DNA of 62,851 nucleotides, filler included, from Nitrospirota bacterium (GCA_011620345.1; 6 parts of 6 records of this genome joined end to end with filler, not necessarily neighbours in it), one strand, 5' to 3'. Positions 1 through 55,143 are shown, counted from the first letter of the whole stretch. Translations and numbers: made by a program. Notes: generated by a model from the letters alone, not told the origin.

Positions 1-3000
1 ACCTGCGTCCTGCCCGTCTCGAGCACCTGGGTTTCCCTAGAGCCGTCCCTGTAGATCGTTACCCCCTTGCAGCCCTGTTCCCAGGCCAAAAGGTAGACCT
101 TTTCGACGGCTTCCGGGGCCGCTTCAAACGGAAAGTTCACCGTTTTGGAGATGGCGTTGTCCACGTGCGCCTGGAAGGCCGCCTGCATCCTTACATGCCG
201 TTCCGGCGGAATGTCGTGGGCGCACACGAACAGCTCCCGTATGTCTTCTGGAACCTCCTCGACGTGCGCAACGCTGCCCTCGAACGCGATCCTCTCCATG
301 AGCGCTTCAGAGTAAAACCCACGCTCTTTGGCGATCCGCGCAAACTCCGGGTGCACTTCGATCAGCTTTTGGCCGTCCAGCACGTTGCGGATGTAGCTGA
401 CGGCGAACAGAGGCTCGATTCCGGAAGAACACCCCGCGATGATGCTGATCGTCCCCGTCGGCGCGACGGTCGTAACCATCGCGTTGCGCTGGGGGATCTT
501 GTAAACGCTCCCTTCGAAGTTGGGAAAAGGCCCTCGATCTTTGGCAAGCTTTCGGGATACCAAGGCGGCCTCCTCGTGGATAAAGCCCATCACCTCGCCG
601 GCGATCTCTAGCGCCCTCTGGGAGTCGTAGGGCACGCCAAGAAGGATCAGCATGTCGGCGAACCCCATCACGCCGAGTCCGATCTTGCGGTTCGCGAGCG
701 TCACCCTGGAAATCTCCTCCAGCGGGTAGCGGTTCATGTCGATCACGTTGTCCAGAAAATGGACAGCGGTCTCCACGGCCCCCTGGAGCCTATCGAAGTC
801 GACCCGGCCGTCCTTGACAAAGTTGGAGAGGTTGATCGAGCCCAAGTTGCAGGACTCGTAGGGCAAAAGGAACTGCTCGCCGCAGGGGTTGCAGCTCTCG
901 ATTTGGCTTACATGGGGCGTTGGGTTCTTGGCGTTCACCCTATCGATAAAAACGATGCCCGGGTCTCCCGTAGCCCAGGCGTTCTCGACGATAAGCTCAA
1001 AGATACGCCTGGCACTCTCCATCCGGACGACGCTGCCGTCCCTGGGGTTGATGAGGGCGTACTCCTCCCCCTTCATCAAGGCTTCCATGAAGACGTCCGT
1101 GATGGCGACCGAGATGTTGAAGTTCTGGAAGCGCTTACCGTCCCTTTTGCAGACAATGAACGCTTCGATGTCGGGATGGTCGACCCGAAGGATCCCCATG
1201 TTCGCACCGCGCCTTGTCCCCCCTTGCTTGATCGTGTCGGTGGCGGCATCGAACACGCCCATGAACGAAACCGGGCCGGAGGATACCCCCTTGGTCGAGT
1301 GGACGAGGTCTCCTTCGGGCCTTAGGCGGGAGAAGGAGAACCCGGTATTGTGGACCATGGCTAGGCCAGACTGTCCGGCAGCGTACGTGTTCCAACCCTC
1401 CACGGAAAGGTCGTAGTAGGGCTTGGGCGTTGTCGCCCGCTCTACACGAGCAATTTCCTGGCCGCGTGCCGCGACACGCTCCATGAGCGCTGCCAGGTCC
1501 GGGTCTTGGAGCCGCACCCGTGAGGCAATGGCGCGCAGGTCATCGCGGCGGCAGCGATGATTGGCGTTGCAGGACCATCGGTTAAGCTCTATGGCGCAGG
1601 GTCCGGGTCCGGTTGACTTATCGCCCCTCCGCCGGACCAACCCCAGCTCCACCATTCGGTCACGCCAGGCCCGTAACGGGAGTCGCAGCGCAGTTTCTCT
1701 TGTGCTCTCCGTGGAGAGCCGGGCGAGCCGGAAGCGGTTGGCCAGGTAGAGTTGCAGGTCGTTAGCGAGTTGCAGGACTTGGGGCAGGGAACAGACCTGC
1801 ACGTTGAACACCGTCTGCCTCCCCCTACCCCGCGGGTTCTTCTTGGATACCGTAGGACGGTAGCCCATCAGGGCGGCAAGCGCGGCCAAGTCCTGGGCAA
1901 ATTCTTCCGAAACCGTGGAGTAGGACGGACTGCCATCCTTGGCGACGTAGCCGTCGCTGTCCAGAAGCCCGGCAAGGAACGCGCGCACGACCGGCAGGGG
2001 CGACTTGGCGATAACCTCGGGGACCCGGATGTGGTCCTCCTTGACGCCGATTGCGCCGAGCCCGCAGGCTTCCAGCAGGTCATGCACGAACCGCTGAGAC
2101 AAGGTAGCCAGCAAGAAGCTTTCTGTACTCCGGTTATCCCGCTGGATGGCGACGTGAATGTCCCTCGAGGCCAGGACCTCTTGCACGCGCTCCAGCACGT
2201 CGCGGGTGCCGGAGAACCAACGCACCCGGTACTGTCTCAGAGAGGGCACGTAGCCAAACGACCCGTCGCCCAAGGTAAAGCCAATGAGCCAGCCCATCCA
2301 GGGATCGATCGTCAGAGTGCCTGCCGTGCGGTACTCAGACCATGGCCAATAGGAATCCGGGCGGTCCGGTCCGAGGATCACGTCCCCTTGCATGAGCTCA
2401 TCAGCGCGGACTTCGGCAAAGCCAGCATCCCGCAGCACCATGAACGGATGCCAGGCGCTAGTCTGGATGACCGTGCCCTCGCGCGTTCGGACTGTCATTT
2501 GATCTGCGGCCGGGACATCAAACTTCCAGACATGGGTAACCTTGCGCAACCCCATGGACCCCGTGGCGGGGTCCATGGCTGCGGTCTGAATGTTGAGGTC
2601 GTTCACGTCATAAGCGATGCCAAAACCGTGACGGATGCCTGGGCGGCCGTCCGCCGTGGTCCGATGGAACAGCACTTCGATAGGCTCCAGCCCGCAAAAT
2701 GTGCTCCAGACCCTAGCATCGCCGGCAATGCAGCCGCCGCCGGATTTGTGGATCAGGGCGGCGTGCTTTACCGTTTCGAAGATACCATTCAGCGAATCTT
2801 CCACGGGGAGGACGAAGCAGGCGCTAAGCTGGCCCAAAGGCCTGCCCGCGTTCATCAGCGTGGGCGAGTTCGGAAGAAAATCGAGCGATGTCAGGAGCTC
2901 GAGAAACCTTGGGTAGGCATTCCCTGGGTCTTTTCCGTAAATCGCCTCGGCTTGGGCGATCGCTCCGGCCACGCGCTCGAAGAGCTCGGATGGTGTCTCG

Positions 3001-3125
3001 ACAACGTTTCCTGATTCGTCTTTTTTCAGATAGCGTTTTTCTAAAACCTTGAGCGCGTTATGGGTAAGCCTAGACATCAGATCGTTTCCGTTTTGCCCGG
3101 GCGACCTTACGTTTTGTATGAGCAC
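1..3125 (-). CDS. nrdJ: Class II (adenosylcobalamin-dependent) ribonucleotide reductase with intein; 3' end runs off the window
   Basis: Manual translation of the minus strand (not in the ORF track because it has no stop in the window): [98 protein letters not shown]. Start is either GTG 3125 (GGAG RBS upstream) or in-frame ATG 3077. Confidence 0.93.
1347..2732 (-). mobile_element. Intein with LAGLIDADG homing endonuclease (462 aa) in nrdJ
   Basis: In-frame insertion between IHKSGGG and [10 protein letters not shown]. Begins CIAGDARV, block B TSAWHPF, two LAGLIDADG-like helices ([22 protein letters not shown]), block F YYDLSVEG, ends MVHN followed by Thr(+1). Confidence 0.95.
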
Positions 3126-3183
3126 GGGGTACTCCCTTCGTTGTGGTTGCCGTAAAGACGGGAAGCAAAGGCAAGGGGAAAAC

Positions 3184-3957
3184 CTACGGTTGTGTTGCCG
3201 ACAAGATCCAAGCGAGGGCCGCCGCCACACCATGCTCGGTATTGGCGGGCGCGATGAAGTCCGCCATGGCTTTGAGCGGCTCGATTGCGTTCCCCATCGC
3301 AACGCGGACTCCGGCGTAGCCGAAAAGCTCGAGATCGTTTTCTCCATCACCGATGCAGGCGATTTCTTCGGGCAGGATCCCCAACGCCTTGGCCACGGAA
3401 TCGAGGCCGGAGGCCTTGCTTACGCCAGCCGGACAAATCTCTAAGTTGCCATGGAACGAGGAGGTCGTATAAATGGTACCGTCCAAGAGCGCCTTGATTT
3501 CGGCCTTGGCCGATTCTACGCTGGCGATATCGCCGGAGGCGTAGAGCTTGACGACTTCATGGAAGCTGTCGTCTTGGCTTGTTGGCCGGACGACGAAGCG
3601 TAGGTCTGCGGTAATTTCCATGACGAAAGGCACAAGCCCAAACTCTGGAAGGCACTCAAGGCAACTTCGAACGGCCTCCAGAGGAATCGTGCGCTTCATC
3701 AAAGGCCTTTGCCGGCCGACATCCCAAAGGACGGCCCCGTTGCAGGTCACGAGCGGGGCACTCCATGTGATCGGCCTGCTTAAATGAGTTGCGCTATGGG
3801 GGTCACGGCCTGTAGCCAGGGTTACACAAGCCCCCTTGCTCAAGATGCTCGAAATAAGAGGCAAGGCTGCGGTATCGAGGGCTCCTTCCCCATCAAGGAG
3901 TGTCCCGTCTAAGTCGATGGCAATAAGCCGCACCTTGGAGGACAGTTTTGCGGCCAC
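3184..3957 (-). CDS. Cof-type HAD-IIB family hydrolase
   Basis: [38 protein letters not shown] motifs. Confidence 0.92.
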
Positions 3958-4206
3958 GGCTTCGATGTCCTACTGTCTTGTGATTGGAGCTTTTAGCTTA
4001 GCATACCTCTTGCCAGCCAAGCCAGGGTTCTTTTTGCGCTGGATCGACCCCTTAAAGTGCCGTAAAAAGGGTAAGGGCTAGAGGCCACCAGGGTCCCCCT
4101 CTTCCGGTAGATTGACGAAACCAAGAAAACCTCGGTCAGCCTACCAAAGCGGAGTAGGGGGCAAGACCTTTTAAGGCTTTTAAGCGGCCTTAACAAAGGC
4201 GGCTTC

Positions 4207-4236
4207 TTGACAACGACTCCTGTAACGTTTTAGGAT
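4207..4236 (+). promoter_or_regulatory. Sigma70-type promoter upstream of the small-peptide/CPBP/ABC cassette
   Basis: TTGACA (4207-4212), 18 bp, TAGGAT (4231-4236) in an AT-richer intergenic stretch. Confidence 0.6.
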
Positions 4237-4445
4237 AATTTATACCTTACAAGGAAGAGGATAGTTTTGCATGGTAAAAACATTGTATATACCATCCCCG
4301 GTAAGTCCGGTAAGGAAGCGGTCTTTCCCGAGGGCCCCAAGAATGGCAAATGCATCTGCTTCGATGAATCCAATCACTAGAACCCTCGAATACAAAAAAG
4401 CGGGCGGTTACTAACCGATAAACCCCTCAACATAGGAGGTATCCG

Positions 4446-4604
4446 ATGGAGACGCGTGTACGTAGAAGGACCAAACGAGGAGCAGAGCTGGCAAGCGGGT
4501 TACTTCAGTCCGGCGGCGGGAAGAAGGGTGCCGGGCCGGGACCCGAGCAGCAGGCTGGAGGGGCAGGCCCAAGTTGCTCCCCTGTTACCATTTACCCTCA
4601 CTAA
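4446..4604 (+). CDS. Small Gly-rich peptide A (52 aa), putative precursor: METRVRRRTKRGAELASGLLQSGGGKKGAGPGPEQQAGGAGPSCSPVTIYPH
   Basis: Strong RBS AGGAGG 6 nt before ATG; below the ORF-track length cut-off; shares length and GGKKG motif with the next ORF. Confidence 0.7.
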   Translation: METRVRRRTKRGAELASGLLQSGGGKKGAGPGPEQQAGGAGPSCSPVTIYPH

Positions 4605-4634
4605 AACAAACTAACCAAGAAGGATTAAGGCTGT

Positions 4635-4793
4635 ATGCTTAATAAAAAAAGTAAAAAAGGTCCGTGCATCGCTACGGGAACTCAGGCAGGTTCCGCTGGA
4701 TTAGGCGGCGGAGCGCCTCAAGAGGGGGGCAAAAAGGGTGGAGCGCCCGCACAAACCCCAGCCGCTCCAGCGCCGGGGGTTTCTTACTACTAG
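4635..4793 (+). CDS. Small Gly/Ala/Pro-rich peptide B (52 aa), putative precursor: MLNKKSKKGPCIATGTQAGSAGLGGGAPQEGGKKGGAPAQTPAAPAPGVSYY
   Basis: AAGGA/AAGG upstream; fills the space between peptide A and the CPBP gene; basic N-terminus, GGKKG, Tyr-containing C-terminus like peptide A. Confidence 0.65.
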   Translation: MLNKKSKKGPCIATGTQAGSAGLGGGAPQEGGKKGGAPAQTPAAPAPGVSYY

Positions 4794-4814
4794 GCCCCTT
4801 TTAAGCGTTACGCC

Positions 4815-5453
4815 GTGGTGGAGGGTATTGTTGCCGCGCTTTTTGTCCTGATCGCCCTGGACTACGGGACGAACGGCAGGCTTGGCCTGCTGGTTGGCGT
4901 AGCGCAGCTTGCCCTTTTCGCGGTTGGCCTTTGGCAGGGCCAGGCAAGCCTAGGAAGTGGGCTTGCCTGGCCCTTTTTGCTTCTTTATTCCGCCTTAGGA
5001 ATCGCCCTAGGGTACGGGCTTTACGCACTGTCTTCGCTCGCGACCCATGTGACACCAAAGGAAGTGGTCGACTATTTCCGGGAAGGGAAGGGGTTTTTGC
5101 GCTTTTACAGGGAAAGGCCCGGGGTAGCGCTATCTTACCTCTTTATGGCCTATTACGAAGAAGTGCTCTGGAGGGCAATCGTTCAAGGAGCTTTGGCTGA
5201 AATGTTCTCGAACCTGTCTTTGGGCATCCTTATCGCTGCCGCCTTCTTCACGATAATGCACTTCCGTTACTTCATCGAGCTGCCCGTTCGATGGGCAGAG
5301 TTTTTCGTGTTTTCATTGACACTAGGCGTACTCTACGCCTCGACGGGCTCTTTGTTCCTGGTAACGCTCGTTCATTTCCTGCGCAACCTGCATGTCACAT
5401 TTTTTGCCCACTGGGACGAGCAGCAGGTCCAAACCGAGCAGACACAATCATAA
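4815..5453 (+). CDS. CPBP (Abi/CAAX type II) intramembrane glutamic endopeptidase
   Basis: Multi-TM protein with EEVLWR (EExxxR), FTIMH (FxxxH) and HFLRN (HxxxN). Confidence 0.9.
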   Translation: MVEGIVAALFVLIALDYGTNGRLGLLVGVAQLALFAVGLWQGQASLGSGLAWPFLLLYSALGIALGYGLYALSSLATHVTPKEVVDYFREGKGFLRFYRERPGVALSYLFMAYYEEVLWRAIVQGALAEMFSNLSLGILIAAAFFTIMHFRYFIELPVRWAEFFVFSLTLGVLYASTGSLFLVTLVHFLRNLHVTFFAHWDEQQVQTEQTQS

Positions 5454-6449
5454 ATGGACGCTTCGCTTCCGCTCGCGCTCGAGGCCGTCAGCAAAACCTT
5501 TCGTACAAAAGGCCGGAAAAAGCAGGTTGTCAACGCCCTTCTGAATATCAGCTTAAGGCTTAAAAAGGGCGAGGTCGCAGGCCTTTTGGGCCCAAACGGC
5601 GCCGGCAAGACGACCCTCATCAAGATCCTTTGCGGCCTTGTGTACCCGGACAAAGGCCGAGTCCTCGCCTTCGGCAGTCCCTTCGAGCAAAGCCGCAAAC
5701 AGGCACTCTCCAGGATGGGCGTCCTGCTCGAAGGCCATCGACACATTTTTTGGCCGCTTACGGTCGTAGAGAACCTCAAGTACTTTGGCATGCTCAAGAA
5801 CGTCCCTGGCCCTGCCCTTCGTGAAGACATCGATAGGCTCGTCCAGTTTATGGGTCTAGAAGACAAGCGCGACGTGCCCGTTAGGTTCCTCTCGCAGGGA
5901 ATGCGCCAGAAATTAAGCGTTGCCGTAACGCTCCTTGGCAACCCGGATGTTCTTCTGCTGGACGAGCCGACACAAGGGTTGGACGTCGAATCCCTAAGGG
6001 ACCTCAAGCAGCGCATTGTCCGTCTCGCGAAGGAGTTTCAAAAGGCCATCCTTCTTTCGACCCACCAGATGGAAGTGGCCCAGGAGCTCTGCGACAGAAT
6101 TCTCATCCTCCAAGAGGGGAGAATCCTTGCAGATGCCCCGACGCCTGAACTGATGGGTTATTTTAAGGGGCAGAACTTCATGCTGACAATTAAGGGCCTT
6201 CCATCCTTTTCCCATGAAAGCCAGCCTTTCGCCGCCCTCGGGATGGAACCCAGCCTAGATGAGCACGAAACCGTCGGCACAAACGGCATTGTCCGCATAA
6301 GGGTGGGGGTAAAAAACGGCGAAGGGCTCTTTGACGTGCTCCAAGGGCTAAAAGCCAAAGGCGCCGAGATCGTCAAGGTCGAAGAGCTCAAACGCTCACT
6401 CGAAGAGGTATTCATGGAAATCCTCGGAGGGAAAAAGGGCGATGGGTAG
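5454..6449 (+). CDS. ABC exporter ATP-binding protein (ABC-2/DrrA type)
   Basis: GPNGAGKTT, LSQGM signature, LLLDEPT, LLSTH, C-terminal SLEEVF. Confidence 0.95.
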   Translation: MDASLPLALEAVSKTFRTKGRKKQVVNALLNISLRLKKGEVAGLLGPNGAGKTTLIKILCGLVYPDKGRVLAFGSPFEQSRKQALSRMGVLLEGHRHIFWPLTVVENLKYFGMLKNVPGPALREDIDRLVQFMGLEDKRDVPVRFLSQGMRQKLSVAVTLLGNPDVLLLDEPTQGLDVESLRDLKQRIVRLAKEFQKAILLSTHQMEVAQELCDRILILQEGRILADAPTPELMGYFKGQNFMLTIKGLPSFSHESQPFAALGMEPSLDEHETVGTNGIVRIRVGVKNGEGLFDVLQGLKAKGAEIVKVEELKRSLEEVFMEILGGKKGDG

Positions 6450-7266
6450 GATGGCTGAGCTGAATAACCTGGCTAAGGCCGAGATGTACCGGGAGTACCT
6501 GTTCGCCAAACGTTACTCCGTGGAGGTGTGCGTTAGGCTCTTTACGGTGTACGCCTTCTTTCTTGTGCTGTTCCTCGTATCCAAAAGCTTTGGCGGCGTC
6601 GAACGGCTCGGCGCCTTCGGGATGATGAACCTGAGCGCCTACCAGCTCGTTGGGTTTGCGATGTGGCTTTTCTCACTCATGGCCTTAGGCGTCGTCAGCG
6701 ATGACATCGCCTACGGCAGCCAGATGGGGGTGCTCGAAGCGGTCTGGCTTATGCCGCACGCCCCGCTTACGATGCTCTGCGTCCGGGCGCTTATCAAGGG
6801 TTTTTACGAGCTATTGTTCCTTTCACTGTTCATAGGCTTAGGAATGGCGACCACGGGCATCCGGCTCGCCCCGCGCGTGTTGCCCGCCCTTGTCATTCTT
6901 GCAGTCACGCTGACGGGGCTTTTCGGGCTGGGACTGCTGTTTGGAGGGCTTGCGCTTATGTACAAGCGGATCGGGCCAGTCACCTCGATTGTACGCACCT
7001 CCTTTTTGTTCCTTACCGGCGCGCTCGTTCCGCTGGACGTTCTTCCAAAGGCCCTCAAGACGCTTGCCCTTTTCTTGCCGATGACGGACGGGGTGGCACT
7101 GATCCAACGCCTGCTCGTCAACAATACCCCCTTGCAAGACGTGTTCTTGAGCGTGGGGATGCTAAGGTGCTTAGCGAACGCGCTCATCTACTTTACGGTC
7201 GGGGTCTTTGCGTTTTGGCACTTTGAGCGAAAAGCCAGAAAAGAAGGGCTGCTTGCCGTCTATTGA
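6442..7266 (+). CDS. ABC-2 type exporter permease
   Basis: About 6 TM helices, FLTGALVPL...LP.T.G pattern, overlaps the ATPase stop. Confidence 0.9.
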   Translation: MGRMAELNNLAKAEMYREYLFAKRYSVEVCVRLFTVYAFFLVLFLVSKSFGGVERLGAFGMMNLSAYQLVGFAMWLFSLMALGVVSDDIAYGSQMGVLEAVWLMPHAPLTMLCVRALIKGFYELLFLSLFIGLGMATTGIRLAPRVLPALVILAVTLTGLFGLGLLFGGLALMYKRIGPVTSIVRTSFLFLTGALVPLDVLPKALKTLALFLPMTDGVALIQRLLVNNTPLQDVFLSVGMLRCLANALIYFTVGVFAFWHFERKARKEGLLAVY

Positions 7267-7273
7267 CGATGCG

Positions 7274-7750
7274 ATGAAGCCTTACGCCTTCCCCCGCCTA
7301 GATGATACGCTCTACATGAACCTTGCCCTTGCTCTGGCCAAAAGAGCCATGCTCGATGAAGAGGTTCCCGTGGGAGCGCTCGTTGTTTTGGGCGGCAAGG
7401 TTTTAGGGTTTGGTTGGAACCAAAAAGAGGCCGGCCTCGACCCGACGGCGCATGCCGAGATCCTGGCGCTTCGAATGGCCGGCAGGACAAAAGGCAACTG
7501 GAGGCTTTCGGGTGGGTGCGTCTACGTTACGAAAGAGCCCTGCGTGATGTGTGCGGGTGCGCTCTTAGAAGCCCGGGTGGCAAGGGTCGTCTACGGCGCC
7601 AAGGATTTCAAAACGGGGGCGTTGGGCTCGCTCTACTGCCTTCACGATCAGGCGTTCTTGCCGCACAGACTGTCCGTTTCAGAAGGGGTAGAGAAGGACA
7701 GGGCCGCGGAACTCCTCGTTCGTTTTTTCCGATGCAAAAAGAACCGCTGA
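7274..7750 (+). CDS. tadA: tRNA adenosine(34) deaminase
   Basis: EVPVGA, PTAHAE, NWRL, EPCVMCAGA, K.GA.GS motifs; start approximate. Confidence 0.9.
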   Translation: MKPYAFPRLDDTLYMNLALALAKRAMLDEEVPVGALVVLGGKVLGFGWNQKEAGLDPTAHAEILALRMAGRTKGNWRLSGGCVYVTKEPCVMCAGALLEARVARVVYGAKDFKTGALGSLYCLHDQAFLPHRLSVSEGVEKDRAAELLVRFFRCKKNR

Positions 7751-7818
7751 AGAGGTTTTTATGGCTTCTAGCCGCATCAAGCGCAGCCCTTGCGTGCCTT
7801 GAAGGAAAGGCGTTTGCC

Positions 7819-8499
7819 GTGCACCTAGCGGACGGGGTTCTGCCTTTCGGCCAAGCTCTCGCGTGGAACGGCGTAGGCATTGCTGCAGTGGCCTTCAGCT
7901 TGAAGCGGGTTTCTGCCGCGCACGGCCAAGAACCCTTTATCAAGGCGATCGCCGCCTTGATGGGCTCGGTGTTGTTCGTCCTTTCTGGGCTGCCTATCCC
8001 CGTGCCCTTTCTTGGGACCACTTCCCACCCTACGGGGATGGGAATCGTGAGCCTGCTTGTCGGCCCTTACATCGCGATTCTCGTGACGCTGGTTGCGCTC
8101 GTTTTGCAAGCACTGCTTTTAGGCCATGGCGGGATCTCGACGCTCGGGGCGAACCTCGTGAGCATGGGGGTTGTGGGGAGTCTGGCCGCGCTTTCGAGCT
8201 TTCGGCTCGTTCGGGGGCTCGGCGGTTCAAAAATGGCAGGGGCGTTCGTGGCCGGGCTTTTGGGCGATTACCTCCCTTACTTTGCAACGGCGACCATTCT
8301 CGCGTTCGGGGTACACGGCACGGCCGCGTTCGGTTCCGTTTTCCTGGCAATCCTTGCAGCCTATGCCCCAACCCAGGTGCCGATCGGGATTCTCGACGGT
8401 GTACTTGCGCTCGGGGCTTACAGGTTCCTTACCGCCAGGCGCCCGGACGTCTTCGAACACCTTAAGGACCGAGGGCTGCTCCCTCGCTACGTAAGGTAG
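7819..8499 (+). CDS. cbiM: ECF cobalt transporter S component CbiM
   Basis: (M/V)HLADGVL N-terminus, GTTSHPTG, QALLLGHGGISTLGAN, PTQVPIGILDG. Start ambiguous (GTG 7819 or an upstream signal peptide). Confidence 0.9.
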   Translation: MHLADGVLPFGQALAWNGVGIAAVAFSLKRVSAAHGQEPFIKAIAALMGSVLFVLSGLPIPVPFLGTTSHPTGMGIVSLLVGPYIAILVTLVALVLQALLLGHGGISTLGANLVSMGVVGSLAALSSFRLVRGLGGSKMAGAFVAGLLGDYLPYFATATILAFGVHGTAAFGSVFLAILAAYAPTQVPIGILDGVLALGAYRFLTARRPDVFEHLKDRGLLPRYVR

Positions 8500-8508
8500 C
8501 GTTACGCC

Positions 8509-8781
8509 ATGAAAGAGATCCGGAGGTTTTTATCGACGCTTCTTTTCGAGGCCTTGTTCGTTTTAGGCCTTCTTTGCTGCAGCTCGGCTCAGGCCATCGA
8601 AGGGGTCGAAGAGGGCAAAATCGAGCCGATCGTAAGAGCCTTGGGGGTAGAGCCTAAAGGCCCCGTTCTTGACTTGAAGGGCGACGCCCTGCTTTTCGTA
8701 GCGTTCGGCGCGGGCGCGCTCGCCGGAGGAGTGGCGGGGTACTGCCTTCGCGCGTTGATCCAAAAAGACCAGCCCCGATGA
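8509..8781 (+). CDS. CbiN-like small membrane subunit of the cobalt transporter
   Basis: Signal/TM - loop - TM with GDALLFVAFGAGALAGGVAGY, directly after cbiM. Confidence 0.7.
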   Translation: MKEIRRFLSTLLFEALFVLGLLCCSSAQAIEGVEEGKIEPIVRALGVEPKGPVLDLKGDALLFVAFGAGALAGGVAGYCLRALIQKDQPR

Positions 8782-8948
8782 CATCCAACGCCCCATCTCC
8801 GCCTTTGGTGACCATAGAGATGATGATGCTTTTATCAACCATTTTTAACCTTGGCAGTTCCGCGTGCGGCTTTATTCGACCGAGCACGATCGGTTAGAAT
8901 AACAATTGTGGGCAAAACATAAAAAAACAACGATAAGGAGAAAAAGCG

Positions 8949-9639: not shown

Positions 9640-10095
9640 CCGTAACCACGTTCTCTTTGGTGGATACAGAAGAGCATTGGCCTGGCTACGCTATAAAGAA
9701 CGCGTCTTGGTGAACAAGAAAAGGGTCCTTAGGCTCATGCAAGTGAGTGGCCTTACGCTGAAGCCAAATGAACGGCTCAGAGCCTACCTCTACGGCGTTC
9801 GTGAAAGCCTGCGGCCTGCTCGGGATCAATCAGGCCTTCACGAGCTACTCGAACCCCAAGGGGAATGCCGATACCGACACGAAGTCGGCGAAGCAAAGGG
9901 TCATGAGGACGCTCAAAGAAGAGCTGGTCCATATAAGGGAATGGAAGAGCCAAGAGGAGCTTATTAAGGCCTTAGGGGGCTGGATCAGGTTCTACAACGA
10001 GGAGTACCTCCACTCGTCTCTTGGGTATAAATCGCCAACAACGTTTGCTTCGCCGACTTCGTGTGAAAATGAATGGGAGGGGGAAGAGATGTGTC
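9640..10095 (+). mobile_element. IS3-family transposase remnant (internally deleted, frameshifted)
   Basis: GYRRA..WL...VNKKRVLRLM (HTH part) joined out of frame to NGSEPTS...PKGNADT...RTLKEE...YNEEYLHSSLGYKSP (integrase core end). Confidence 0.88.
9877..10064. repeat. Perfect 21-bp inverted repeat pair ACACGAAGTCGGCGAAGCAAA (9877-9897 and 10044-10064)
   Basis: Direct reading: 10044-10064 TTTGCTTCGCCGACTTCGTGT is the exact reverse complement of 9877-9897. Confidence 0.95.
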
Positions 10096-10195
10096 NNNNN
10101 NNNNNNNNNNNNNNNNNNNNNNNNNNNNNNNNNNNNNNNTTAATTAATTAANNNNNNNNNNNNNNNNNNNNNNNNNNNNNNNNNNNNNNNNNNNN
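10096..10195. other. Artificial contig linker (N-run + TTAATTAATTAA)
   Basis: Six-frame stop spacer flanked by Ns; same linker at 31677-31776, 41164-41263, 50477-50576 and 59716-59815. Confidence 0.99.
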
Positions 10196-10215
10196 AATGA
10201 ACATGGGAGTTTTTT

Positions 10216-10830
10216 ATGCCGCTGGTTCCTATGGTTATCGAACAAACACTTCGCGGAGAGCGGGCGTACGATATTTACTCCAGACTCTTAAAAGAGCGCG
10301 TCGTTTTTTTGGGGAGCCCTATTAACTCGGATATTGCAAACCTGATTATCGCCCAGCTCTTGTATCTTGAGTCTGAAGATCCTGAAAAAGATATCTACCT
10401 CTACGTGAACTCTCCGGGGGGTCTGGTTACTGCCGGGCTCGCCATTTACGACACGATGCAGTTCATCAAGCCTGACGTGGCTACGCTGTGTCTTGGAATG
10501 GCTGCGAGCATGGGTGCCGTGCTTCTGGCTGCCGGCGCCAAAGGAAAACGCTTCGCACTTCCGCACTCCCGCATCCTGATCCACCAGCCGTCAGGGGGGT
10601 TTCAAGGGCAAGCCGCGGATATCGAAATTCAAGCGCGTGAAATTCTAAGGCTCAAGGCGGAACTCACCCTCATCCTCTCCGGCCATACTGGACAGCCTAT
10701 CGATAAGGTGGAAAAGGATACCGATAGGGACTATTTCATGAACGCCGAAGAAGGGGTAGAGTACGGGATCATCGACCAGGTGATCTCAAAGAAGCGAGCT
10801 GGCGGGTTGATGCAGGAACGCCACGAATAA
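10216..10830 (+). CDS. clpP: ATP-dependent Clp protease proteolytic subunit
   Basis: [30 protein letters not shown]. Confidence 0.99.
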
Positions 10831-28495: not shown

Positions 28496-29899
28496 ATGCA
28501 GCAATCGCGGTTTCGAACGGAGAGAGACTCCCTAGGCGAGGTTATGGTGCCCGAAGAGGCGTATTACGGCGCCCAGACTCAACGGGCCGTTGAGAACTTC
28601 CACGTTAGCGGGCAGCGCTTCCCGAGGGTCTTCATTAAAGCGCTCGGGCTTATCAAGGGCTATGCGTCGGAAGCGAATGCCGAGCTTGGCCAGTTGGACC
28701 CTGTTCTCGCAGACGCGATCGGTAGGGCCGCAAAGGAAGTGGCGGAGGGGAGTCTCGATAAAGAGTTCGTCGTGGATGTCTACCAGACGGGCTCGGGAAC
28801 TTCGACCAACATGAACGTCAACGAGGTCATTGCAAGCCGTGCCAACGAGCTTCTGGGCGGGAAAAAGGGCGATCGTTTCCCAGTTCATCCAAATGACCAT
28901 GTCAACAAAGGACAGTCGAGCAACGATGTCATCCCAACGGCTATCCACGTGGCCGCCTACGATGAGCTCAAAGGGAACCTCCTGCCAGCTCTTTTTAGGC
29001 TCGAAGGTGCACTTGCAAAAAAGGCCGAATCGTTCTTTGACGTGTTGAAAATTGGTAGGACTCACCTTCAAGATGCCGTTCCTATGCGGCTTTCCCAGGA
29101 GTTTGGAGCTTATGCGACGATGCTAAGGCATGCAGGTGTTCGCCTGAAACATTCAGAATACTTCCTGGAAGAGCTTCCAATCGGCGGTACGGCCGTAGGG
29201 ACCGGACTGAACGCGCACCCAAAGTTCGGCCAGGCCGTTGTCGAAAAATTGCAAGAAGGATTAGGGTATCCGTTTCGTACGGCCGAGGATAAGTTCGAGG
29301 CTATTGGGGCAAAAGATGCCCTTGTTGAATTGAGCGGGGCATTGAAGTCTTTGGCCGTGAGCCTTATTAAAATCGCCAACGATATCCGTCTGCTCAATTC
29401 CGGCCCCCGTTGCGGAATAGGGGAAATCAAGGTTCCATCCGTCCAGCCAGGTTCCTCTATCATGCCGGGCAAGGTGAACCCTGTGATGGCCGAGATGGTG
29501 TGTCAAGTAGCCGTACGTGTGATCGGGAACGATGCAATCGCCACGTTGGCCGGTTTTTCTGGGAACCTAGAGCTCAACACCATGATGCCAGTCCTAGCCC
29601 ATTCGATTTTGGAGAGCTTGAGCCTTTTGGCCAACGCCATGGAGGCGTTTCGTGCAAAGTGTATCGAGAACATCCTTGCAGATTCTGGGCGATGCCATGA
29701 TTGGCTAGAAAAAAGCCTCGCCTTGGTTACCGCCTTGACTCCACAAATCGGATATGACAAGGCTGCGGCACTCGTAAAAAAGGCTTACGAAACCGGGCAG
29801 TCGCTAAAGGAAGTTCTTTTGGAAGAAGGAATTTATTCGAAGGAGGAGGCAGAGGCGCTACTAAACCCCGTCTCTATGCTTGGAGAAGCATTGCCTTAG
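28496..29899 (+). CDS. fumC: Class II fumarate hydratase
   Basis: YYGAQTQRA, QTGSGTSTNMN.NEV, HPNDHVN..QSSND, GRTHLQDA, GSSIMPGKVNP. Confidence 0.95.
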   Translation: MQQSRFRTERDSLGEVMVPEEAYYGAQTQRAVENFHVSGQRFPRVFIKALGLIKGYASEANAELGQLDPVLADAIGRAAKEVAEGSLDKEFVVDVYQTGSGTSTNMNVNEVIASRANELLGGKKGDRFPVHPNDHVNKGQSSNDVIPTAIHVAAYDELKGNLLPALFRLEGALAKKAESFFDVLKIGRTHLQDAVPMRLSQEFGAYATMLRHAGVRLKHSEYFLEELPIGGTAVGTGLNAHPKFGQAVVEKLQEGLGYPFRTAEDKFEAIGAKDALVELSGALKSLAVSLIKIANDIRLLNSGPRCGIGEIKVPSVQPGSSIMPGKVNPVMAEMVCQVAVRVIGNDAIATLAGFSGNLELNTMMPVLAHSILESLSLLANAMEAFRAKCIENILADSGRCHDWLEKSLALVTALTPQIGYDKAAALVKKAYETGQSLKEVLLEEGIYSKEEAEALLNPVSMLGEALP

Positions 29900-50607: not shown

Positions 50608-50734
50608 GTTGAAAAAGTGAACCTCAAAAAGGGCTTTTTATGGGGATTTTAAAATTCTGTTGAAAATTTCATCGTGCATTCGTTGAAAGATTCAACATTT
50701 TTGGAACCGTGCAGGTCTCACAAAAAACTTCAAC
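50608..50734. promoter_or_regulatory. Repeated GTTGAA-N3-TTCAAC palindromes (putative sigma54 activator binding sites)
   Basis: Perfect copy 50682-50696; near copies 50659-50673 and 50608-50622; half-site 50729-50734. Confidence 0.7.
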
Positions 50735-50771
50735 AGGCCGAAAGTGTGGAAAAATCAGGCACGCTACGGCA

Positions 50772-50786
50772 TGGCATCATTATTGC
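50772..50786 (+). promoter_or_regulatory. Sigma54 (-24/-12) promoter
   Basis: TGGCAT-CATTA-TTGC matches TGGCAC-N5-TTGC; an NtrC-type activator gene lies at 55970. Confidence 0.8.
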
Positions 50787-50828
50787 GTACATATTAAGCG
50801 TGGACAGTCGAAAAAAAAGGAGAAGGCC

Positions 50829-51953
50829 ATGAAAAGTCTCATTGCAGGGTTTGGGTTCTTCGCGATTCTGACTTTGACCCTTCCATTGCTCGCGTTGACG
50901 ATGTTTGTGCTTCGTTACGCCGGGTTCCTCGTTCTTGTCCCAATAGGGGCGGCCCTTGTGGGAAAAGAGTTGGGAGTTGCCGTTTGTGAAGGGTCTGGAC
51001 GTACGATTCAAAGGAGGGTTGCCATGAAACGTAGGTTGTTGGATGCTTTCGCCGCGCTGGCCGTTTTGCTCGGCGTCGTCGTAGCCATTCCCGTGATGGC
51101 GCTCGGGGTCGTCTTGTTGCGGCCGCTTTTGCTTGGTGCGGTTCCTGTCGGGGTTGTCGGTATTGGGCTTGCTCGCTTAGTTTCTGCCAGGCGCGTGGGC
51201 GAGGGCCTTACCAAGCTGATGGTGACCGTCTCGGTCCTGATCGGCTTGCTCGTGGCAATCCCGCTTATGGCCTTTCTTGGGTTTACGCTGCGCTATGCGC
51301 TGGCCCTGGCTATCCCTGCGGGCGTGATTGGAGGCGCGCTCGCGCTCGCGCTTGATCCGAGCTTCAGGGCCTTGATCCTCGAAAAGACGGCCGATCGGCG
51401 TTTGCGGCAGATCATGGGGTTTATGCTTTCAGACAACTGCCTTTATTCCCCAAGCCATACCTGGACAAGGGTAGGGATCGGCCGGAAAGAGGCGGAAATC
51501 GGCCTGGATGACTTCGCCCAGAAGCTCCTTGGGAAGGCCGGCGCGATCGAGCTTTCGGTAACCCCGGGCACACTGGTGAAGCAGGGCGAAACGATCGGGA
51601 TGCTCCGGCACGACGGGCGTTCGATTCCGATCAAGTCTCCGCTCGAAGGGGTCGTCTCCAGCCTGAACAGGGGCGTTTTGAGCGATCCTGGCAGGATTAA
51701 CCATGACCCATACGGCAGGGGTTGGATCCTGAAACTCGAGCCGCAATCGTTTGCCTACGACCGTGTCCTGTTGAAGACCGGAGAAGCGGCGAGGGAATGG
51801 CTCCAAAACGAACTTGAGCGCTTCCGGGTGATCGTTCAGGGTAGCCCAGCGCTTGTCCCCGTCCTTCAGGATGGCGGCGTATTTGTAGAGAACCTGGCCG
51901 AACACTTGGACGATGCCACGTGGGCAAGGCTCAAAGAAAGCTTTTTCAAATAA
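50829..51953 (+). CDS. Membrane protein with three TM-hairpin repeats and a C-terminal GcvH-fold domain (no lipoyl Lys)
   Basis: AGGAG RBS; YSPSHTW, IGLDDFAQKLLG, SPLEGVV..LN, DPYG.GW; tail PVLQDGG. A second strong RBS/ATG at 51024. Confidence 0.85.
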   Translation: MKSLIAGFGFFAILTLTLPLLALTMFVLRYAGFLVLVPIGAALVGKELGVAVCEGSGRTIQRRVAMKRRLLDAFAALAVLLGVVVAIPVMALGVVLLRPLLLGAVPVGVVGIGLARLVSARRVGEGLTKLMVTVSVLIGLLVAIPLMAFLGFTLRYALALAIPAGVIGGALALALDPSFRALILEKTADRRLRQIMGFMLSDNCLYSPSHTWTRVGIGRKEAEIGLDDFAQKLLGKAGAIELSVTPGTLVKQGETIGMLRHDGRSIPIKSPLEGVVSSLNRGVLSDPGRINHDPYGRGWILKLEPQSFAYDRVLLKTGEAAREWLQNELERFRVIVQGSPALVPVLQDGGVFVENLAEHLDDATWARLKESFFK

Positions 51954-51964
51954 GGAGTGCGGGC

Positions 51965-52861
51965 ATGGACATTCGAAGGCGAGATTTTCTAAAGCTTACA
52001 GGACTTGCGGCAGCGACCGGAATCCTCGGCCCTGGGGGGAACGGAAGGGTCCTCGGGGCCGAGACTGGGCCCAAAGACGATGGTTACGGGCTTTTGATCG
52101 ACACGACGAGGTGCGTTGGATGTCGCTCTTGCGAGCTTGCCTGTGCCGAGGCCAACGGCCTTAAAGAGCCAGAGCAGTTCGGGGATGAGGCCATCTTTCA
52201 AAGGGTCAGGACGACCTCTCCCGATGCCTTTACCGTGGTCAATCGCTACGAGACCCAAAAAGGCCAAGTCTTTCGAAAGCAGCAATGTATGCACTGCCTT
52301 CAACCTGCATGCGAGTCTGCTTGCCTGGTAAGGGCGCTTCGAAAGCATCCGGAAGGCCCGGTCACCTGGAACGATAAGAAGTGTCTTGGGTGTCGCTACT
52401 GCATGATCTCTTGCCCGTTCGACGTGCCCAAGTTCGAGTACAACAGCCCGAACCCGCGGATCCGGAAGTGTACGCTTTGCTTCGAGCGGGTCAAGGCTGG
52501 CAAGCAAACAGCTTGTGCCGAGGCCTGCCCTGTGGAGGCGATTCGGTTTGGCAAACGCTCGGAACTGCTGGAAACCGCAAAAACAAGGATTTACCAAAAC
52601 CAGGACAGTTACGTCCATTCCATCTACGGCGAGCACGAGGCGGGCGGAACGAGCGTGATGTACTTATCCGCCGTCCCGTTCGAGCAGCTTGGCCTCAACA
52701 CGGGCCTCGATAAGAAACCTTACCCCGAGCTGACGCAGGAATATCTGCATAACATCGTGCTGGTGGATTTATTCTTCCCCATCTTCTTGCTCGGCATAAG
52801 CTATGCGGTGAAGGGCAGGGAGAAGGAGATCAAAGCCCAAACGAGGGAGGAAGAGCGATGA
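51965..52861 (+). CDS. Tat-exported 4x[4Fe-4S] protein (HybA/HmcB/NrfC-like) with C-terminal TM anchor
   Basis: RRDFLK Tat motif; CVGCRSCELAC, CMHCLQPACESAC, CLGCRYCMISC, CTLC...CAEAC; IYGEHEAGGT. Confidence 0.93.
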   Translation: MDIRRRDFLKLTGLAAATGILGPGGNGRVLGAETGPKDDGYGLLIDTTRCVGCRSCELACAEANGLKEPEQFGDEAIFQRVRTTSPDAFTVVNRYETQKGQVFRKQQCMHCLQPACESACLVRALRKHPEGPVTWNDKKCLGCRYCMISCPFDVPKFEYNSPNPRIRKCTLCFERVKAGKQTACAEACPVEAIRFGKRSELLETAKTRIYQNQDSYVHSIYGEHEAGGTSVMYLSAVPFEQLGLNTGLDKKPYPELTQEYLHNIVLVDLFFPIFLLGISYAVKGREKEIKAQTREEER

Positions 52862-54171
52862 AACGCCAAGACTCAAAGATGCCCATGCGGGTCGAGCCAC
52901 TTAGGAGGGCAACGAGGCCCTCGTTTAGGGCGCTAAGCACCGAGTTTGCAAGGTTCGTACGTTTCATACTTGAAGAGCTCAAGCCCAAGGGCAAGATTCT
53001 TACGCCCTTTAACGTGATCACGGGCGTGATCATCCTCGTTGGGCTCGTGATCATCGTCGTTCGGTTTGCCAAGGGGCTTGGTGCCGTAACGAACCTCTCC
53101 CAGGAGTTCCCCTGGGGGCTGTGGATCGGGTTTGATGTTGTCACGGGCGTGGCCTTTGCGGGCGGTGCCTACGTTTTGACGTTCATGGTCTACATCCTGG
53201 GGTTAGAAAAATACCACCCTATTGCCCGGATCACGGTGCTTAACGGTTTTTTGGCCTACGCGTTTTATGCAGGAGCGCTCCTGCTCGACATCGGGCGTCC
53301 TTGGCATATCTTCAACCCGATCATCGGGAACTCTTTCGGGGCCGCTTCGGTTATGTTCCTCGTCGCCTGGCATTTCTTCTTGTACACGGTGGCTGAGTTC
53401 GTAGAGTTCTCCCCGGCCATCGGCGAGTGGTTAGGCTACCGGAGGCTTACTCGTATCTTGCAATCATTGACGCTCGCGGCCGTCATCTTCGGCATCATGC
53501 TCTCGACGGGCCATCAATCTGGGTTGGGGGCGCTGTTCTTGATGGCCAAGGGCAAGTTGCATCCGCTTTGGTATTCAAGCCTCTTGCCCGTTTCATTCTT
53601 TGTCTCCAGCATCTTTGCCGGGCTGTCGATGGTGATCTTGGAGGGAACGATCAGCGAACGGGTGTTTTCCGACCGCATTCCAGGCACCCATAAGGCTTCC
53701 CACGGCGAGATCGTGGTCGGCCTTTCCAGGGTATGCGTAGGAGCGATGTTCGTCTACTTGTTCCTCGAGGTCGCCAAGCTCATAAACGAAGGGACGATTG
53801 GCTACCTTGCGACCCCGATGGGCGCCTGGTACCTGCTGGAGGTCTTGGGATTCATGCTTATCCCGGCGGGCCTGTTCCTTCTGGGGGCTCGAAGCGCCAA
53901 CCTGTTCATGCTCAAAATCGCCGCGTTCGGAACGGTGCTTGGCGTTGCGCTCAACCGTCTCAACGTCTCGATCATCGCCTACAAATGGAATGCTCCTTTC
54001 CATTACGTGCCCTCCTGGATGGAGATTTGGGTGACGCTTGCCGTCATCAGTGCGGAGATTTGGGCGCTTCGCTGGATTGTCCGCCGCATGCCCGTTTACG
54101 AAGAACATGAAGAACATTTGGATGTCGAAGAACTATCGGTTAAGGAGGGAGTCCAATGGAAGGCTATGTAG
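52858..54171 (+). CDS. NrfD/PsrC-family membrane subunit (HybB/HmcC-like)
   Basis: GLGAVTNL...PWGLWIGFDV, DIGRPW, LST.HQSGLG, KLHPLW, LNRLN, Y.PSW.E. Confidence 0.93.
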   Translation: MKRQDSKMPMRVEPLRRATRPSFRALSTEFARFVRFILEELKPKGKILTPFNVITGVIILVGLVIIVVRFAKGLGAVTNLSQEFPWGLWIGFDVVTGVAFAGGAYVLTFMVYILGLEKYHPIARITVLNGFLAYAFYAGALLLDIGRPWHIFNPIIGNSFGAASVMFLVAWHFFLYTVAEFVEFSPAIGEWLGYRRLTRILQSLTLAAVIFGIMLSTGHQSGLGALFLMAKGKLHPLWYSSLLPVSFFVSSIFAGLSMVILEGTISERVFSDRIPGTHKASHGEIVVGLSRVCVGAMFVYLFLEVAKLINEGTIGYLATPMGAWYLLEVLGFMLIPAGLFLLGARSANLFMLKIAAFGTVLGVALNRLNVSIIAYKWNAPFHYVPSWMEIWVTLAVISAEIWALRWIVRRMPVYEEHEEHLDVEELSVKEGVQWKAM

Positions 54172-54869
54172 ACCTGCACGCACTCAAGGCGCTGAATTAC
54201 CTTGTGGCCGTCATCTCGCTGATTTCCCTGGTCTTCTTCTGGCAAGTCTTGAAGGCTCCGGCGGTCAGGAGAGTGGTCCAACGGGTGGGGACGAGCATCG
54301 CGGACATGGCCAGGTGGTTTTTCTTGCCGGAGCATTACTACTTCCACCCAGGACATACCTGGGCATGCCCCGGGGATGACGGAAGGATGTTGGTGGGCAT
54401 GGACGACTTTGCCACGAAGCTCGTTGGCCAAATTGACGAGATCGAGCTCCCCAAGCCGGGCACCCGTGTTCGGCAAGGTCAGGTGGTTTGGAAGGTCCGG
54501 GTGGCTGGCAAGACGTTCTCCATGCGTTCGCCCGTCGAAGGGGTCGTGGAGGAAATTCATGAGGCGGTACGTGAGAACCCAAGCCTCCTCCTGAATGATC
54601 CTTACAAAAACGGCTGGATCTTGCGCATCAGGCCTGAAGACCCGGCCGCTTCACTCTCCACGCTCCTTTCTGGGGGTCTTGCCAGGCGCTGTCTTGAAAC
54701 CGACCTGTCAAGGCTGCTCCCAGCTGGCTCGGGAGAGCTTGGTGTACTCGCTCAAGATGGCGGGCTTCTCTTACAAGACGGCGGGATGCCGATCCACGGG
54801 ATTGCCCAAGCCCTCGAACCCGAGCGCTGGGATGAGCTCGTTTCCGAAATGTTCCTGACGAAGGAATAG
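54156..54869 (+). CDS. Single-TM GcvH-fold protein (canonical lipoyl Lys absent)
   Basis: YFHPGHTW, VGMDDFA.KLVG, SPVEG.V, DPYKNGW; tail LAQDGG-LLLQDGG. Confidence 0.88.
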   Translation: MEGYVDLHALKALNYLVAVISLISLVFFWQVLKAPAVRRVVQRVGTSIADMARWFFLPEHYYFHPGHTWACPGDDGRMLVGMDDFATKLVGQIDEIELPKPGTRVRQGQVVWKVRVAGKTFSMRSPVEGVVEEIHEAVRENPSLLLNDPYKNGWILRIRPEDPAASLSTLLSGGLARRCLETDLSRLLPAGSGELGVLAQDGGLLLQDGGMPIHGIAQALEPERWDELVSEMFLTKE

Positions 54870-54894
54870 GTTCGCTCAAACGAAGGGGATAGCC

Positions 54895-55143
54895 ATGAAG
54901 AACAAGCACGGTCCCGCCAAGGGTGCCAAGGAAAGCCCAAGGACGGCCCTTTGGGTCGTCCTTGGGCCCCTGCTTGGGCTTATGTATGTTGTCTTGATCC
55001 CACTGATCGGGCTTTTTGCGCTTGCGTTTCTGGCGGTTCGTGCGCTCGAGAGAGCGTTTCGTCCTTCAAGGGCGGGGGTCGTGTATCCTGACGGAGGACT
55101 TTCTGTCAAAAAAGCGGGAAAAAAAGAGGGGGAGGAGGGATGA
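54895..55143 (+). CDS. Small membrane hairpin protein
   Basis: GAAGGGG RBS; GPLLGLMYVVLIPLIG hydrophobic core; stop overlaps next start (ATGA). Confidence 0.75.
   Translation: MKNKHGPAKGAKESPRTALWVVLGPLLGLMYVVLIPLIGLFALAFLAVRALERAFRPSRAGVVYPDGGLSVKKAGKKEGEEG

Follow-up and report, generated by a model that had tools for sequence, protein, structure and literature searches.

Conserved genes for small cationic peptides ahead of CPBP protease and ABC-2 exporter genes in a Nitrospirota bacterium

Loci that combine genes for small peptides with genes for a CPBP-type protease and an ATP-binding cassette (ABC) exporter are already known in Firmicutes. Proteins of the Abi/CPBP family have a self-immunity role in class II bacteriocin loci, whose peptides carry leaders with a consensus ending in GG. 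In a diderm host, the Gly-rich microcin B17 precursor McbA needs the McbBCD synthetase, loses its leader to TldD/E, and is exported by the McbEF pump, an ATPase plus permease pair that also confers tolerance. Here, we describe a locus of a related kind in a 62.8-kb stretch of DNA from a Nitrospirota bacterium (the whole of which is referred to as the window), where two small open reading frames (ORFs), named pepA and pepB, stand directly upstream of the genes for a CPBP protease and for the ATPase and permease of an ABC-2 type pump (Table 1). Judged by comparison with relatives, pepA and pepB are genuine conserved protein-coding small genes that travel with the CPBP and ABC-2 genes. What is new here is the peptide family (hydrophilic, disordered, cationic, and with no recognized leader), the lack of a modifying enzyme or a C39 transporter, and the diderm host from the Nitrospirota. 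The reading that we prefer, to which we give about an even chance, is that the peptides serve the protease-exporter pair as cargo or substrate, being exported and perhaps trimmed but left unmodified, and that the whole forms an operon of six genes, the first of which is a further small ORF, ORF0.

The streptolysin S operon encodes the SagA precursor, the CaaX-type protease SagE, and the ABC transporter SagGHI. There, as in the window, a small gene of ∼50 codons comes first, ahead of a gene for a protease of the CPBP type and several genes for an ABC exporter (PMC4513790). The sag operon, which belongs to a Firmicute, also encodes the heterocycle-forming enzymes SagBCD and a peptide with a Cys/Ser/Thr-rich core, whereas the locus described here has no modifying enzyme, its peptides are Gly/Ala/Pro/Lys-rich, and its host is a member of the Nitrospirota. 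A mechanistic precedent comes from Staphylococcus aureus, where the AgrD intermediate is exported by AbcA/PmtCD and then cleaved by MroQ at the cell surface (bioRxiv 10.64898/2026.09.29.755489), so that an ABC pump exports a peptide that a CPBP protein trims at the outer face of the membrane. The AgrD system is distinguished by dispersed genes, cyclization by AgrB, an amphipathic leader, and a sensor kinase, none of which is seen here. SilX of Streptococcus anginosus has a role in signal-peptide processing or export (PMC9298176). In the Sil and class II bacteriocin loci, a CPBP gene likewise adjoins small peptide genes; their peptides differ in having double-glycine leaders, C39-peptidase ABC transporters, and a hydrophobic or amphipathic character, which are all lacking here. 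The first-pass annotation of this DNA had pointed out that CPBP/Abi proteases and ABC exporters accompany bacteriocin and RiPP (peptide made by ribosomes and then modified post-translationally) loci, and Sag (PMC4513790) and SilX (PMC9298176) are precedents. In the TMcin clusters, the small peptide TmcA, the S2P-type intramembrane protease TmcP, and the type V ABC exporter TmcBC similarly form a unit (PMC13712780), and the differences are that TmcP is a metalloprotease and that the TmcA peptide has a transmembrane helix and a disulfide, while the peptides described here are hydrophilic.

Functional coupling of a permease with a CPBP domain is also known from NF041647, a family of fused ABC permease/CPBP proteins, to the C-terminal part of which the window CPBP aligns with an E-value of 3.9e-8; its score, 32.5 bits, falls far short of the cut-off of 435, the genes here are separate, and NF041647 has no described peptide partner. 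Microcin B17 shares with this locus a Gly-rich small peptide, a two-gene pump, and a diderm host, and differs in relying on McbBCD and TldD/E, where this locus has a CPBP and no modifying enzyme was found in the window. Among the papers listed in literature searches on the GGKKG motif and on CPBP proteases in connection with ABC transporters, precursor peptides, or RiPPs, none gives a description of this peptide family.

The pepA product has the sequence METRVRRRTKRGAELASGLLQSGGGKKGAGPGPEQQAGGAGPSCSPVTIYPH and the pepB product the sequence MLNKKSKKGPCIATGTQAGSAGLGGGAPQEGGKKGGAPAQTPAAPAPGVSYY. Both genes lie, with the positions and equal lengths given in the first-pass annotation, in an 857-nt gap between a divergently oriented Cof-type HAD hydrolase gene (3184–3957, minus strand) and the CPBP gene. 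By itself, the length of the ORFs says little in favor of coding, and it is the conservation in relatives that carries the case. Two ATG-initiated ORFs of at least 52 codons appeared on the plus strand of such a gap in 2.6% of 5,000 first-order Markov simulations; with all start codons and both strands considered, the gap holds 5 ORFs where 2.0 are expected on average (P = 0.043), and other frames are open over the same DNA (4456–4614, 52 codons, and 4411–4572 on the minus strand, 53 codons).

A genome scan with an alignment of five CPBP sequences gave 87 pattern matches, from which two loci emerged. One of them, L002 from an Eubacteriales bacterium, turned out to be an unrelated tandem-CPBP locus and was dropped. 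The other, L001, comes from Nitrospirae bacterium UBA2233 (phylum Nitrospirota), encodes a CPBP protein 93% identical to that of the window, and is the one independent genome behind all the DNA comparisons reported here. In L001, both peptide genes are intact with 52 codons each: PepA is identical at 46 of 52 residues (88%; 145 of 159 nt) and PepB at 49 of 52 (94%; 152 of 159 nt). The first-pass annotation had stated that a lack of small ORFs upstream of orthologous CPBP-ABC genes would speak against its proposal, and L001 has both of them. The spacers are conserved as well (27/30 identical bases between pepA and pepB, 21/21 between pepB and the CPBP gene), as are the CPBP gene itself (587/639), the promoter segment at 4191–4240 (46/50), and the region from 4241 to 4445 (169/195, plus 13 gap columns). 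Further upstream, positions 3900–4190 match at 122 of 260, and the sequences are unrelated upstream of about 4185, so that the homology sets in ∼22 nt 5' of the −35 box.

By blastn, the block conserved in L001 corresponds to window positions 4158–7759, from the promoter through tadA, and it lies between different flanks. On its left, the HAD hydrolase gene of the window is replaced in L001 by a gene for a type I restriction R subunit (L001 2077–5154, plus strand), which ends ∼250 nt before the cassette promoter. On its right, cbiM and the following 90-codon ORF of the window (7760–8817) are absent from L001 (compare L001 8948–8983), and ∼735 nt of L001 (9617–10352) have no counterpart in the window, which makes the neighborhood of the cassette and tadA rich in indels. 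In this pairwise alignment, the promoter-to-tadA block is thus a unit kept between variable flanks.

The ratios of non-synonymous to synonymous change between the window and L001 (pN/pS, by Nei-Gojobori counts) are 0.41 for pepA (14 substitutions; synonymous/non-synonymous, 6.5/7.5) and 0.26 for pepB (7 substitutions; 4/3), each being the lowest among the three plus-strand frames; one antisense frame of pepB stands at 0.19, the usual mirror effect. The corresponding values are 0.18 for the CPBP gene, 0.19 for the ATPase gene, and 0.15 for the permease gene. The peptide values point to coding and are only suggestive because of the few substitutions involved. They bear on an explanation in which the ORFs are untranslated and the gap is a conserved non-coding 5' leader, the open frames being a by-product of a G+C-rich composition. 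The several overlapping open frames, the marginally unusual ORF length, and an atypical third-position GC content all agree with such a leader. However, searches against Rfam, of the whole window and with a permissive threshold over 3900–4900, yielded only tRNAs and one chance-level match, so that the gap is explained by no known RNA element. Besides, pN/pS is lowest in the proposed frames, all indels between the window and L001 that fall inside the ORFs are in frame, and the frames relative to the neighboring genes vary among relatives while each ORF stays intact. Furthermore, 32 of the 33 distinct variants in the protein collection, which is biased to intact ORFs, keep the frame to the same stop. 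We regard a purely non-coding role as extremely unlikely.

The collection variants in question came from profile searches that found five pepB clusters among five candidates (73 to 92% identity) and six pepA clusters among six candidates (88 to 96%); expansion of these clusters gave 21 distinct PepA and 12 distinct PepB sequences, in which the substitutions are often conservative (K/R, I/V, L/I, S/T). All but one of the PepB variants have 52 residues, the exception being a 53-residue form with an in-frame extra Pro, and one gene call, P0169, is extended upstream to 71 residues. Of the PepA variants, 20 have 52 residues and one, P0178, has 55. Among these variants, frame-breaking changes in close relatives, which the first-pass annotation had also listed as evidence that would count against it, are confined to P0178, where the pepA tail is frameshifted. 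An arrangement of pepA, pepB, and the CPBP gene as a single read-through gene was ruled out, given three intervening stops and relative frames that differ in P0169 and P0003; that the three starts (4446, 4635, and 4815) share one frame in the window is a 1-in-9 coincidence.

In further relatives, the peptide genes also appear to accompany CPBP genes, with pepB reaching the more distant ones. The close CPBP family comprises four proteins at E ≤ 0.001 among 3,204 candidates, with 97, 87, 70, and 66% identity; an exhaustive search gave 232 matches at E ≤ 0.001 and 45 at ≤ 1e-10, with a single 50% cluster below 1e-30 and the next relatives at 33 to 40% identity. Peptide and CPBP entries with equal longest-contig sizes were found in ten cases (90570, 49212, 25956, 24410, 19032, 13558, 9462, 6999, 4581, and 1881 nt). 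One of these pairs, of 6999 nt and from the source Logan, consists of the 73%-identical PepB P0158 and the 66%-identical CPBP P0004, and on this pairing PepB would therefore be at least as conserved as the CPBP enzyme. In the 70%-identical CPBP relative P0003, the protein is called with a 52-residue N-terminal extension that reaches the contig edge; read in the −1 frame, this extension has a run of 24 positions that are all compatible with the PepB consensus, and the seven codons at its end permit G, P, G, V, S, Y, and Y, followed by a stop. This is indirect but telling evidence that the extension contains pepB, in a frame relative to the CPBP gene other than that in the window. Finally, in one NCBI Nitrospirota metagenome-assembled genome (the entries behind P0162 and P0191), a PepA homolog and a CPBP have consecutive protein accessions, which suggests that pepB, called by other sources, was left unannotated there.

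This co-occurrence matters for another explanation, namely, that the products are small basic disordered proteins that act inside the cell, for example, as nucleic-acid or ribosome binders, and merely have a promoter in common with the genes of the protease and pump without being substrates of either. Their high positive charge, lack of structure, and lack of an export signal would suit such a role. It is nevertheless very unlikely, in view of the repeated co-occurrence with CPBP wherever the context can be inferred and of the confinement of the peptide family to the clade that carries this CPBP.

In addition to pepA and pepB, the gap contains ORF0, which the first-pass annotation, counting two peptides, had missed; with it, there are probably three peptide genes. 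The L001 copy (5463–5600, 45 codons) differs by two indels, of 9 and 3 nt, both in frame, and over the last 14 codons the two copies show just two changes, both synonymous. The pN/pS of ORF0 is 0.37, the lowest of the six frames. Neither the protein collection nor the ESM Atlas contains ORF0, which is known from two sequences. On this comparison, we put the case for a real third peptide gene at about even odds or a little better. With a transcription start a few bases past the −10 hexamer, ORF0 would probably head the operon.

The products of the small ORFs are cationic, hydrophilic, Gly/Ala/Pro-rich peptides for which no secondary structure is predicted. PepA has a net charge of +5 and an isoelectric point (pI) of 10.4 and is hydrophilic, PepB has a net charge of +5 and a pI of 9.8, and the ORF0 product, which ends in YKKAGGY, has a net charge of +8. 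Across the three, the pI ranges from 9.8 to 11.1, the net charge from +5 to +8, and the grand average of hydropathy (GRAVY) from −0.49 to −0.76, in agreement with the first-pass description of hydrophilic peptides that differ from classic pore formers. PepB, when modeled with AlphaFold2 (AF2) on the basis of 11 sequences, shows no secondary structure (predicted local distance difference test [pLDDT] score, 62; predicted template modeling [pTM] score, 0.13). The novelty that the annotation had assumed holds, too: neither PepA nor PepB matched any family in Pfam, NCBIfam, or PADLOC. In PADLOC, the peptides, the CPBP, and the permease had no defense match, and the ABC ATPase had only generic ATPase matches. 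The ESM Atlas contains PepB letter for letter with no usable neighbor and gave only sub-threshold matches for the ORF0 product. When the window and L001 were searched by tblastn with the three peptides as queries, no convincing copy other than those at the cognate loci emerged, plasmid collections had no match to the CPBP, PepA, or PepB by tblastn, and phage collections had none to the cassette by blastn.

PepA and PepB share an architecture in which a basic N terminus is followed by a stretch of small residues, then by Q-x-G-G-K-K-G and a part rich in Pro/Ala/Gly, and finally by an aromatic end. At the level of sequence, the "twin" relationship described at first is weak. BLASTP gives two short matches with E-values of 0.04 and 0.32, profile-profile comparison with hhalign gives a probability of 1.5%, and the Smith-Waterman score of 53 compares with 36.4 ± 6.4 in composition-preserving shuffles (P = 0.016); 8% of the shuffles yield a common 5-mer by chance. 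The common descent of pepA and pepB is thus weakly supported by their sequences. GGKKG is present in both peptides, as had been noted, but strict invariance fails among the PepA variants, and the single Cys that had been listed as a feature gives way to Ser in one of the 20 full-length PepA variants and in 2 of the 12 PepB variants. DNA coding for GGKKG occurs four times in the window, against 0.14 expected, and three of the four occurrences are in the cassette. The third cassette copy (6426–6439, plus strand) encodes the C terminus of the ATPase, ILGGKKGDG, in overlap with the ribosome-binding region of the permease gene, and is also found in L001. The fourth (28856–28869, plus strand) lies in frame within a gene for a fumarase/aspartase-type lyase.

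The variation in PepB is concentrated at residues 37 to 48, and Q-x-G-G-K-K-G marks the boundary between the better conserved N-terminal part and the variable part. The N-terminal two-thirds are almost invariant, and the C-terminal VSYY is invariant; in PepA, the variable positions are more evenly spread. With 10 variable positions among the first 36 of PepB and 9 among the last 16, which end in the invariant VSYY, this layout may resemble that of leader and core in a RiPP precursor. The peptides could accordingly be viewed as RiPP precursors that enzymes encoded elsewhere in the genome modify, for example, at the C-terminal aromatic tails VSYY, IYPH, and GGY, with the CPBP removing the leader and the ABC-2 pump exporting the product; SagE and SagGHI set an example of a RiPP cluster that combines a CPBP with an ABC transporter (PMC4513790). 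However, a Pfam scan of 60 ORFs in the 62.8-kb window found no radical SAM, YcaO, P450, ATP-grasp, or lanthipeptide enzyme, extending the earlier remark that no modifying enzyme is adjacent, and the L001-conserved block holds nothing but the peptides, the protease, the pump, and tadA. Known precursor families in Pfam and NCBIfam are unmatched, and the Cys is not conserved. Judged from the window ORFs and the families searched, a RiPP origin of these peptides is, on balance, unlikely.

The CPBP protein matches PF02517 over residues 104 to 192 with 52.3 bits against a cut-off of 22.4. Proteases of this family are recognized by the motifs EExxxR, FxxxH, and HxxxN. An alignment of 23 sequences shows no variation at E115, E116, R120, F145, H149, and H187 and a conservation of at least 90% at N191. 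The structural model (pLDDT 84.1; pTM 0.78) has Rce1 (4cad) as its best PDB match, with template modeling (TM) scores of 0.55/0.49 and a probability of 1.00, ahead of SpdC (6u0o; TM score 0.49); the Foldseek E-values are only 0.02 to 0.6, and a search of solved structures by sequence with the CPBP profile returned nothing. The protein is thus predicted, from its motifs and model, to be catalytically intact and to have an Rce1-like fold. In the ATPase (PF00005, 108.4 bits), the Walker A, signature, Walker B, and H-loop motifs are readable; its score against TIGR01188 is 207 bits, below the cut-off of 312, and Pfam detects neither a C39 peptidase domain nor a fused transmembrane domain. The permease matches PF01061 (31.9 bits; cut-off, 26.9) and, among solved structures, shows a weak similarity to Wzm (E 0.05). 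The adjacent ATPase and permease genes have the make-up of an ABC-2 type exporter, with scores short of the NCBIfam subfamily cut-offs.

In the preferred reading, with the peptides as substrates of the protease-exporter pair, they would be made without a Sec-type signal and carried across the inner membrane by the ABC-2 pump, and the CPBP would trim them, possibly near the common Q-x-G-G-K-K-G, with no need for an enzyme of post-translational modification. Alternatively or additionally, the CPBP may protect the producer, as do the Abi/CPBP proteins in bacteriocin loci. Export, CPBP cleavage, and a bacteriocin or signal activity are all inferred from gene order and from the Firmicutes precedents. 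Because the cassette has no sensor or regulator gene, a self-contained, bacteriocin-like unit with built-in protection is favored, and we lean weakly towards an antagonistic product rather than a signal.

Several points weigh against this reading. No leader is recognized, the double-glycine consensus is not seen by eye, and there is no hydrophobic stretch and no C39 peptidase domain; the peptides, hydrophilic and disordered, are unlike the known pore-forming bacteriocins or the peptides known for ABC-2 pumps. The third-position GC content is 0.57 in pepA and 0.45 in pepB, compared to 0.64 to 0.74 in the neighboring genes. In P0178, found on two contigs, a frameshift swaps the last three residues of PepA, which is either evidence against an essential YPH tail or an assembly error. 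The matches in the protein collection are biased, as broken ORFs would not be there; the depth is shallow, with one narrow clade and few substitutions behind each pN/pS value; and co-location by equal longest-contig size is indirect. In the protein collection, pepA was not found beside the 66%-identical CPBP relative, and its range is documented only within the clade whose CPBP proteins are at least 87% identical.

By the features tested, the peptides fit into no named class of bacteriocins or RiPPs, since the traits tested that define these classes are lacking. Class II double-glycine bacteriocins are set apart by the lack of a C39 transporter, the misfit of the leader by eye, and the lack of a bacteriocin family match; class II or leaderless bacteriocins and phenol-soluble modulins, by the lack of an amphipathic or hydrophobic helix, as judged from the GRAVY values and the AF2 model of PepB; and RiPP clusters, by the lack of an adjacent modifying enzyme among the 60 window ORFs scanned. 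A bolder proposal, which we consider improbable, is that of a system new to diderms, in which leader-core peptides devoid of a Sec signal, a double-glycine leader, or a modifying enzyme would be pumped by an ABC-2 exporter and matured by the CPBP at Q-x-G-G-K-K-G, releasing Pro/Ala-rich, Tyr-ended peptides of 20 to 27 residues. If true, CPBP-dependent maturation of peptides would here have its first pathway outside Firmicutes, together with a CPBP substrate that is genetically linked, and the GGKKG at the ATPase C terminus could serve in docking or self-recognition. Substrates are known for few bacterial CPBP proteases, and the operon provides a directly testable candidate substrate-protease pair. 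The peptides, hydrophilic, disordered, cationic, and from a poorly studied phylum, do not resemble known bacteriocins or pheromones and would represent a new peptide class if activity were demonstrated; should they prove to be ordinary small proteins of the cytoplasm, or else leader peptides, the locus would be of local interest only.

The features of the locus are listed in Table 1. ORF0, pepA, pepB, and the CPBP, ATPase, and permease genes are probably co-transcribed as one transcription unit, to judge from their arrangement. The tight coupling of the protease, ATPase, and permease genes and the AGGAGG ribosome-binding site, both of which had been pointed out before, were confirmed. The promoter announced ahead of the ORFs is present as a motif, but sites of this type number two within 3800–7900, compared with 1.5 ± 1.2 in shuffled sequences, so that the motif alone is not significant. 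tadA is the last gene of the block conserved in L001 and is a neighbor rather than a functional part of the cassette. Two further candidate elements were rejected: the palindrome CGGTTACTAACCG (4405–4417) is not conserved in L001, and a hairpin at the 3' end of pepB is no better than shuffles (z = 0.08).

Table 1. Features of the peptide-protease-exporter locus (positions in the window)
Feature	Position	Strand	Remarks
Promoter-like TTGACA-N18-TAGGAT	4207..4236	+	10/12 positions match; both hexamers unchanged in L001
ORF0, 47 aa	4271..4414	+	GAGGA 9 nt 5' of ATG; retained in L001
pepA, 52 aa	4446..4604	+	AGGAGG at 4434–4439, 6 nt 5' of ATG
pepB, 52 aa	4635..4793	+	conserved in relatives; 12 distinct variants of 52–53 aa
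CPBP / Rce1-like glutamic intramembrane protease, 212 aa	4815..5453	+	PF02517; three motifs intact
Terminator-like perfect 15-bp inverted repeat, 9-nt loop, then TTTTT	4936..4974	+	inside CPBP frame
ABC ATPase, DrrA-like, 331 aa	5454..6449	+	PF00005; 0 bp gap after CPBP gene
ABC-2 type permease, 274 aa	6442..7266	+	PF01061; 8 bp overlap with ATPase gene
tadA (tRNA adenosine-34 deaminase)	7274..7750	+	NF008113, 160 bits (cut-off, 150); ATG 7 nt 3' of permease stop

The hairpin at 4936–4974 has a folding energy of −38 kcal/mol (z = −5.7) in the window, compared to −23 kcal/mol (z = −2.0) and an interrupted T-run in L001, and it covers CPBP residues from about 41 to 53, where the protein varies most. 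Short peptide-only transcripts are favored by terminators that follow the structural genes of bacteriocins. By analogy, this hairpin might act as a brake with the same effect, a suggestion tempered by its position within a gene and its decay in L001. The hairpin also enters into the last explanation to be considered, in which the peptides would be translated regulatory leader peptides that, together with the hairpin, tune the read-through into a CPBP/ABC-2 module for resistance or immunity to outside compounds. Such a role could account for the terminator-like hairpin with its T-run 3' of the peptides and for the CPBP gene, which begins 21 nt past the pepB stop and lacks a visible Shine-Dalgarno sequence, so that its translation may depend on that of pepB; Gly/Pro-rich stretches, moreover, can slow ribosomes. 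On the other hand, three consecutive leader ORFs of ∼50 codons would be unusual, the amino acid sequence of PepB is at least as conserved as that of the CPBP (73% versus 66%), and the hairpin, much weaker in L001, is located 140 nt into the CPBP frame, which together make a leader-peptide function quite unlikely.

The rest of the window is ordinary chromosome, with genes for ribonucleotide reductase, ClpP/ClpX, NusA, cobalamin synthesis, and RecBCD. At 3–3350 (minus strand), the gene for the large subunit of ribonucleotide reductase is split by an intein with a LAGLIDADG homing endonuclease (Pfam Intein_splicing, LAGLIDADG_3, and Hom_end). Just before clpP, an A+T-rich stretch at 9768–10350 (GC 0.31 to 0.33, compared to ∼0.57 elsewhere) contains an ORF with an integrase core fragment (rve_3) and may be the remnant of a mobile element. 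At 50709–55862 (plus strand), genes for three proteins with glycine-cleavage-H-like domains are interleaved with genes for 4Fe-4S dicluster and NrfD-like membrane proteins; this unusual redox module is followed by genes for a sigma-54 response regulator and a histidine kinase.

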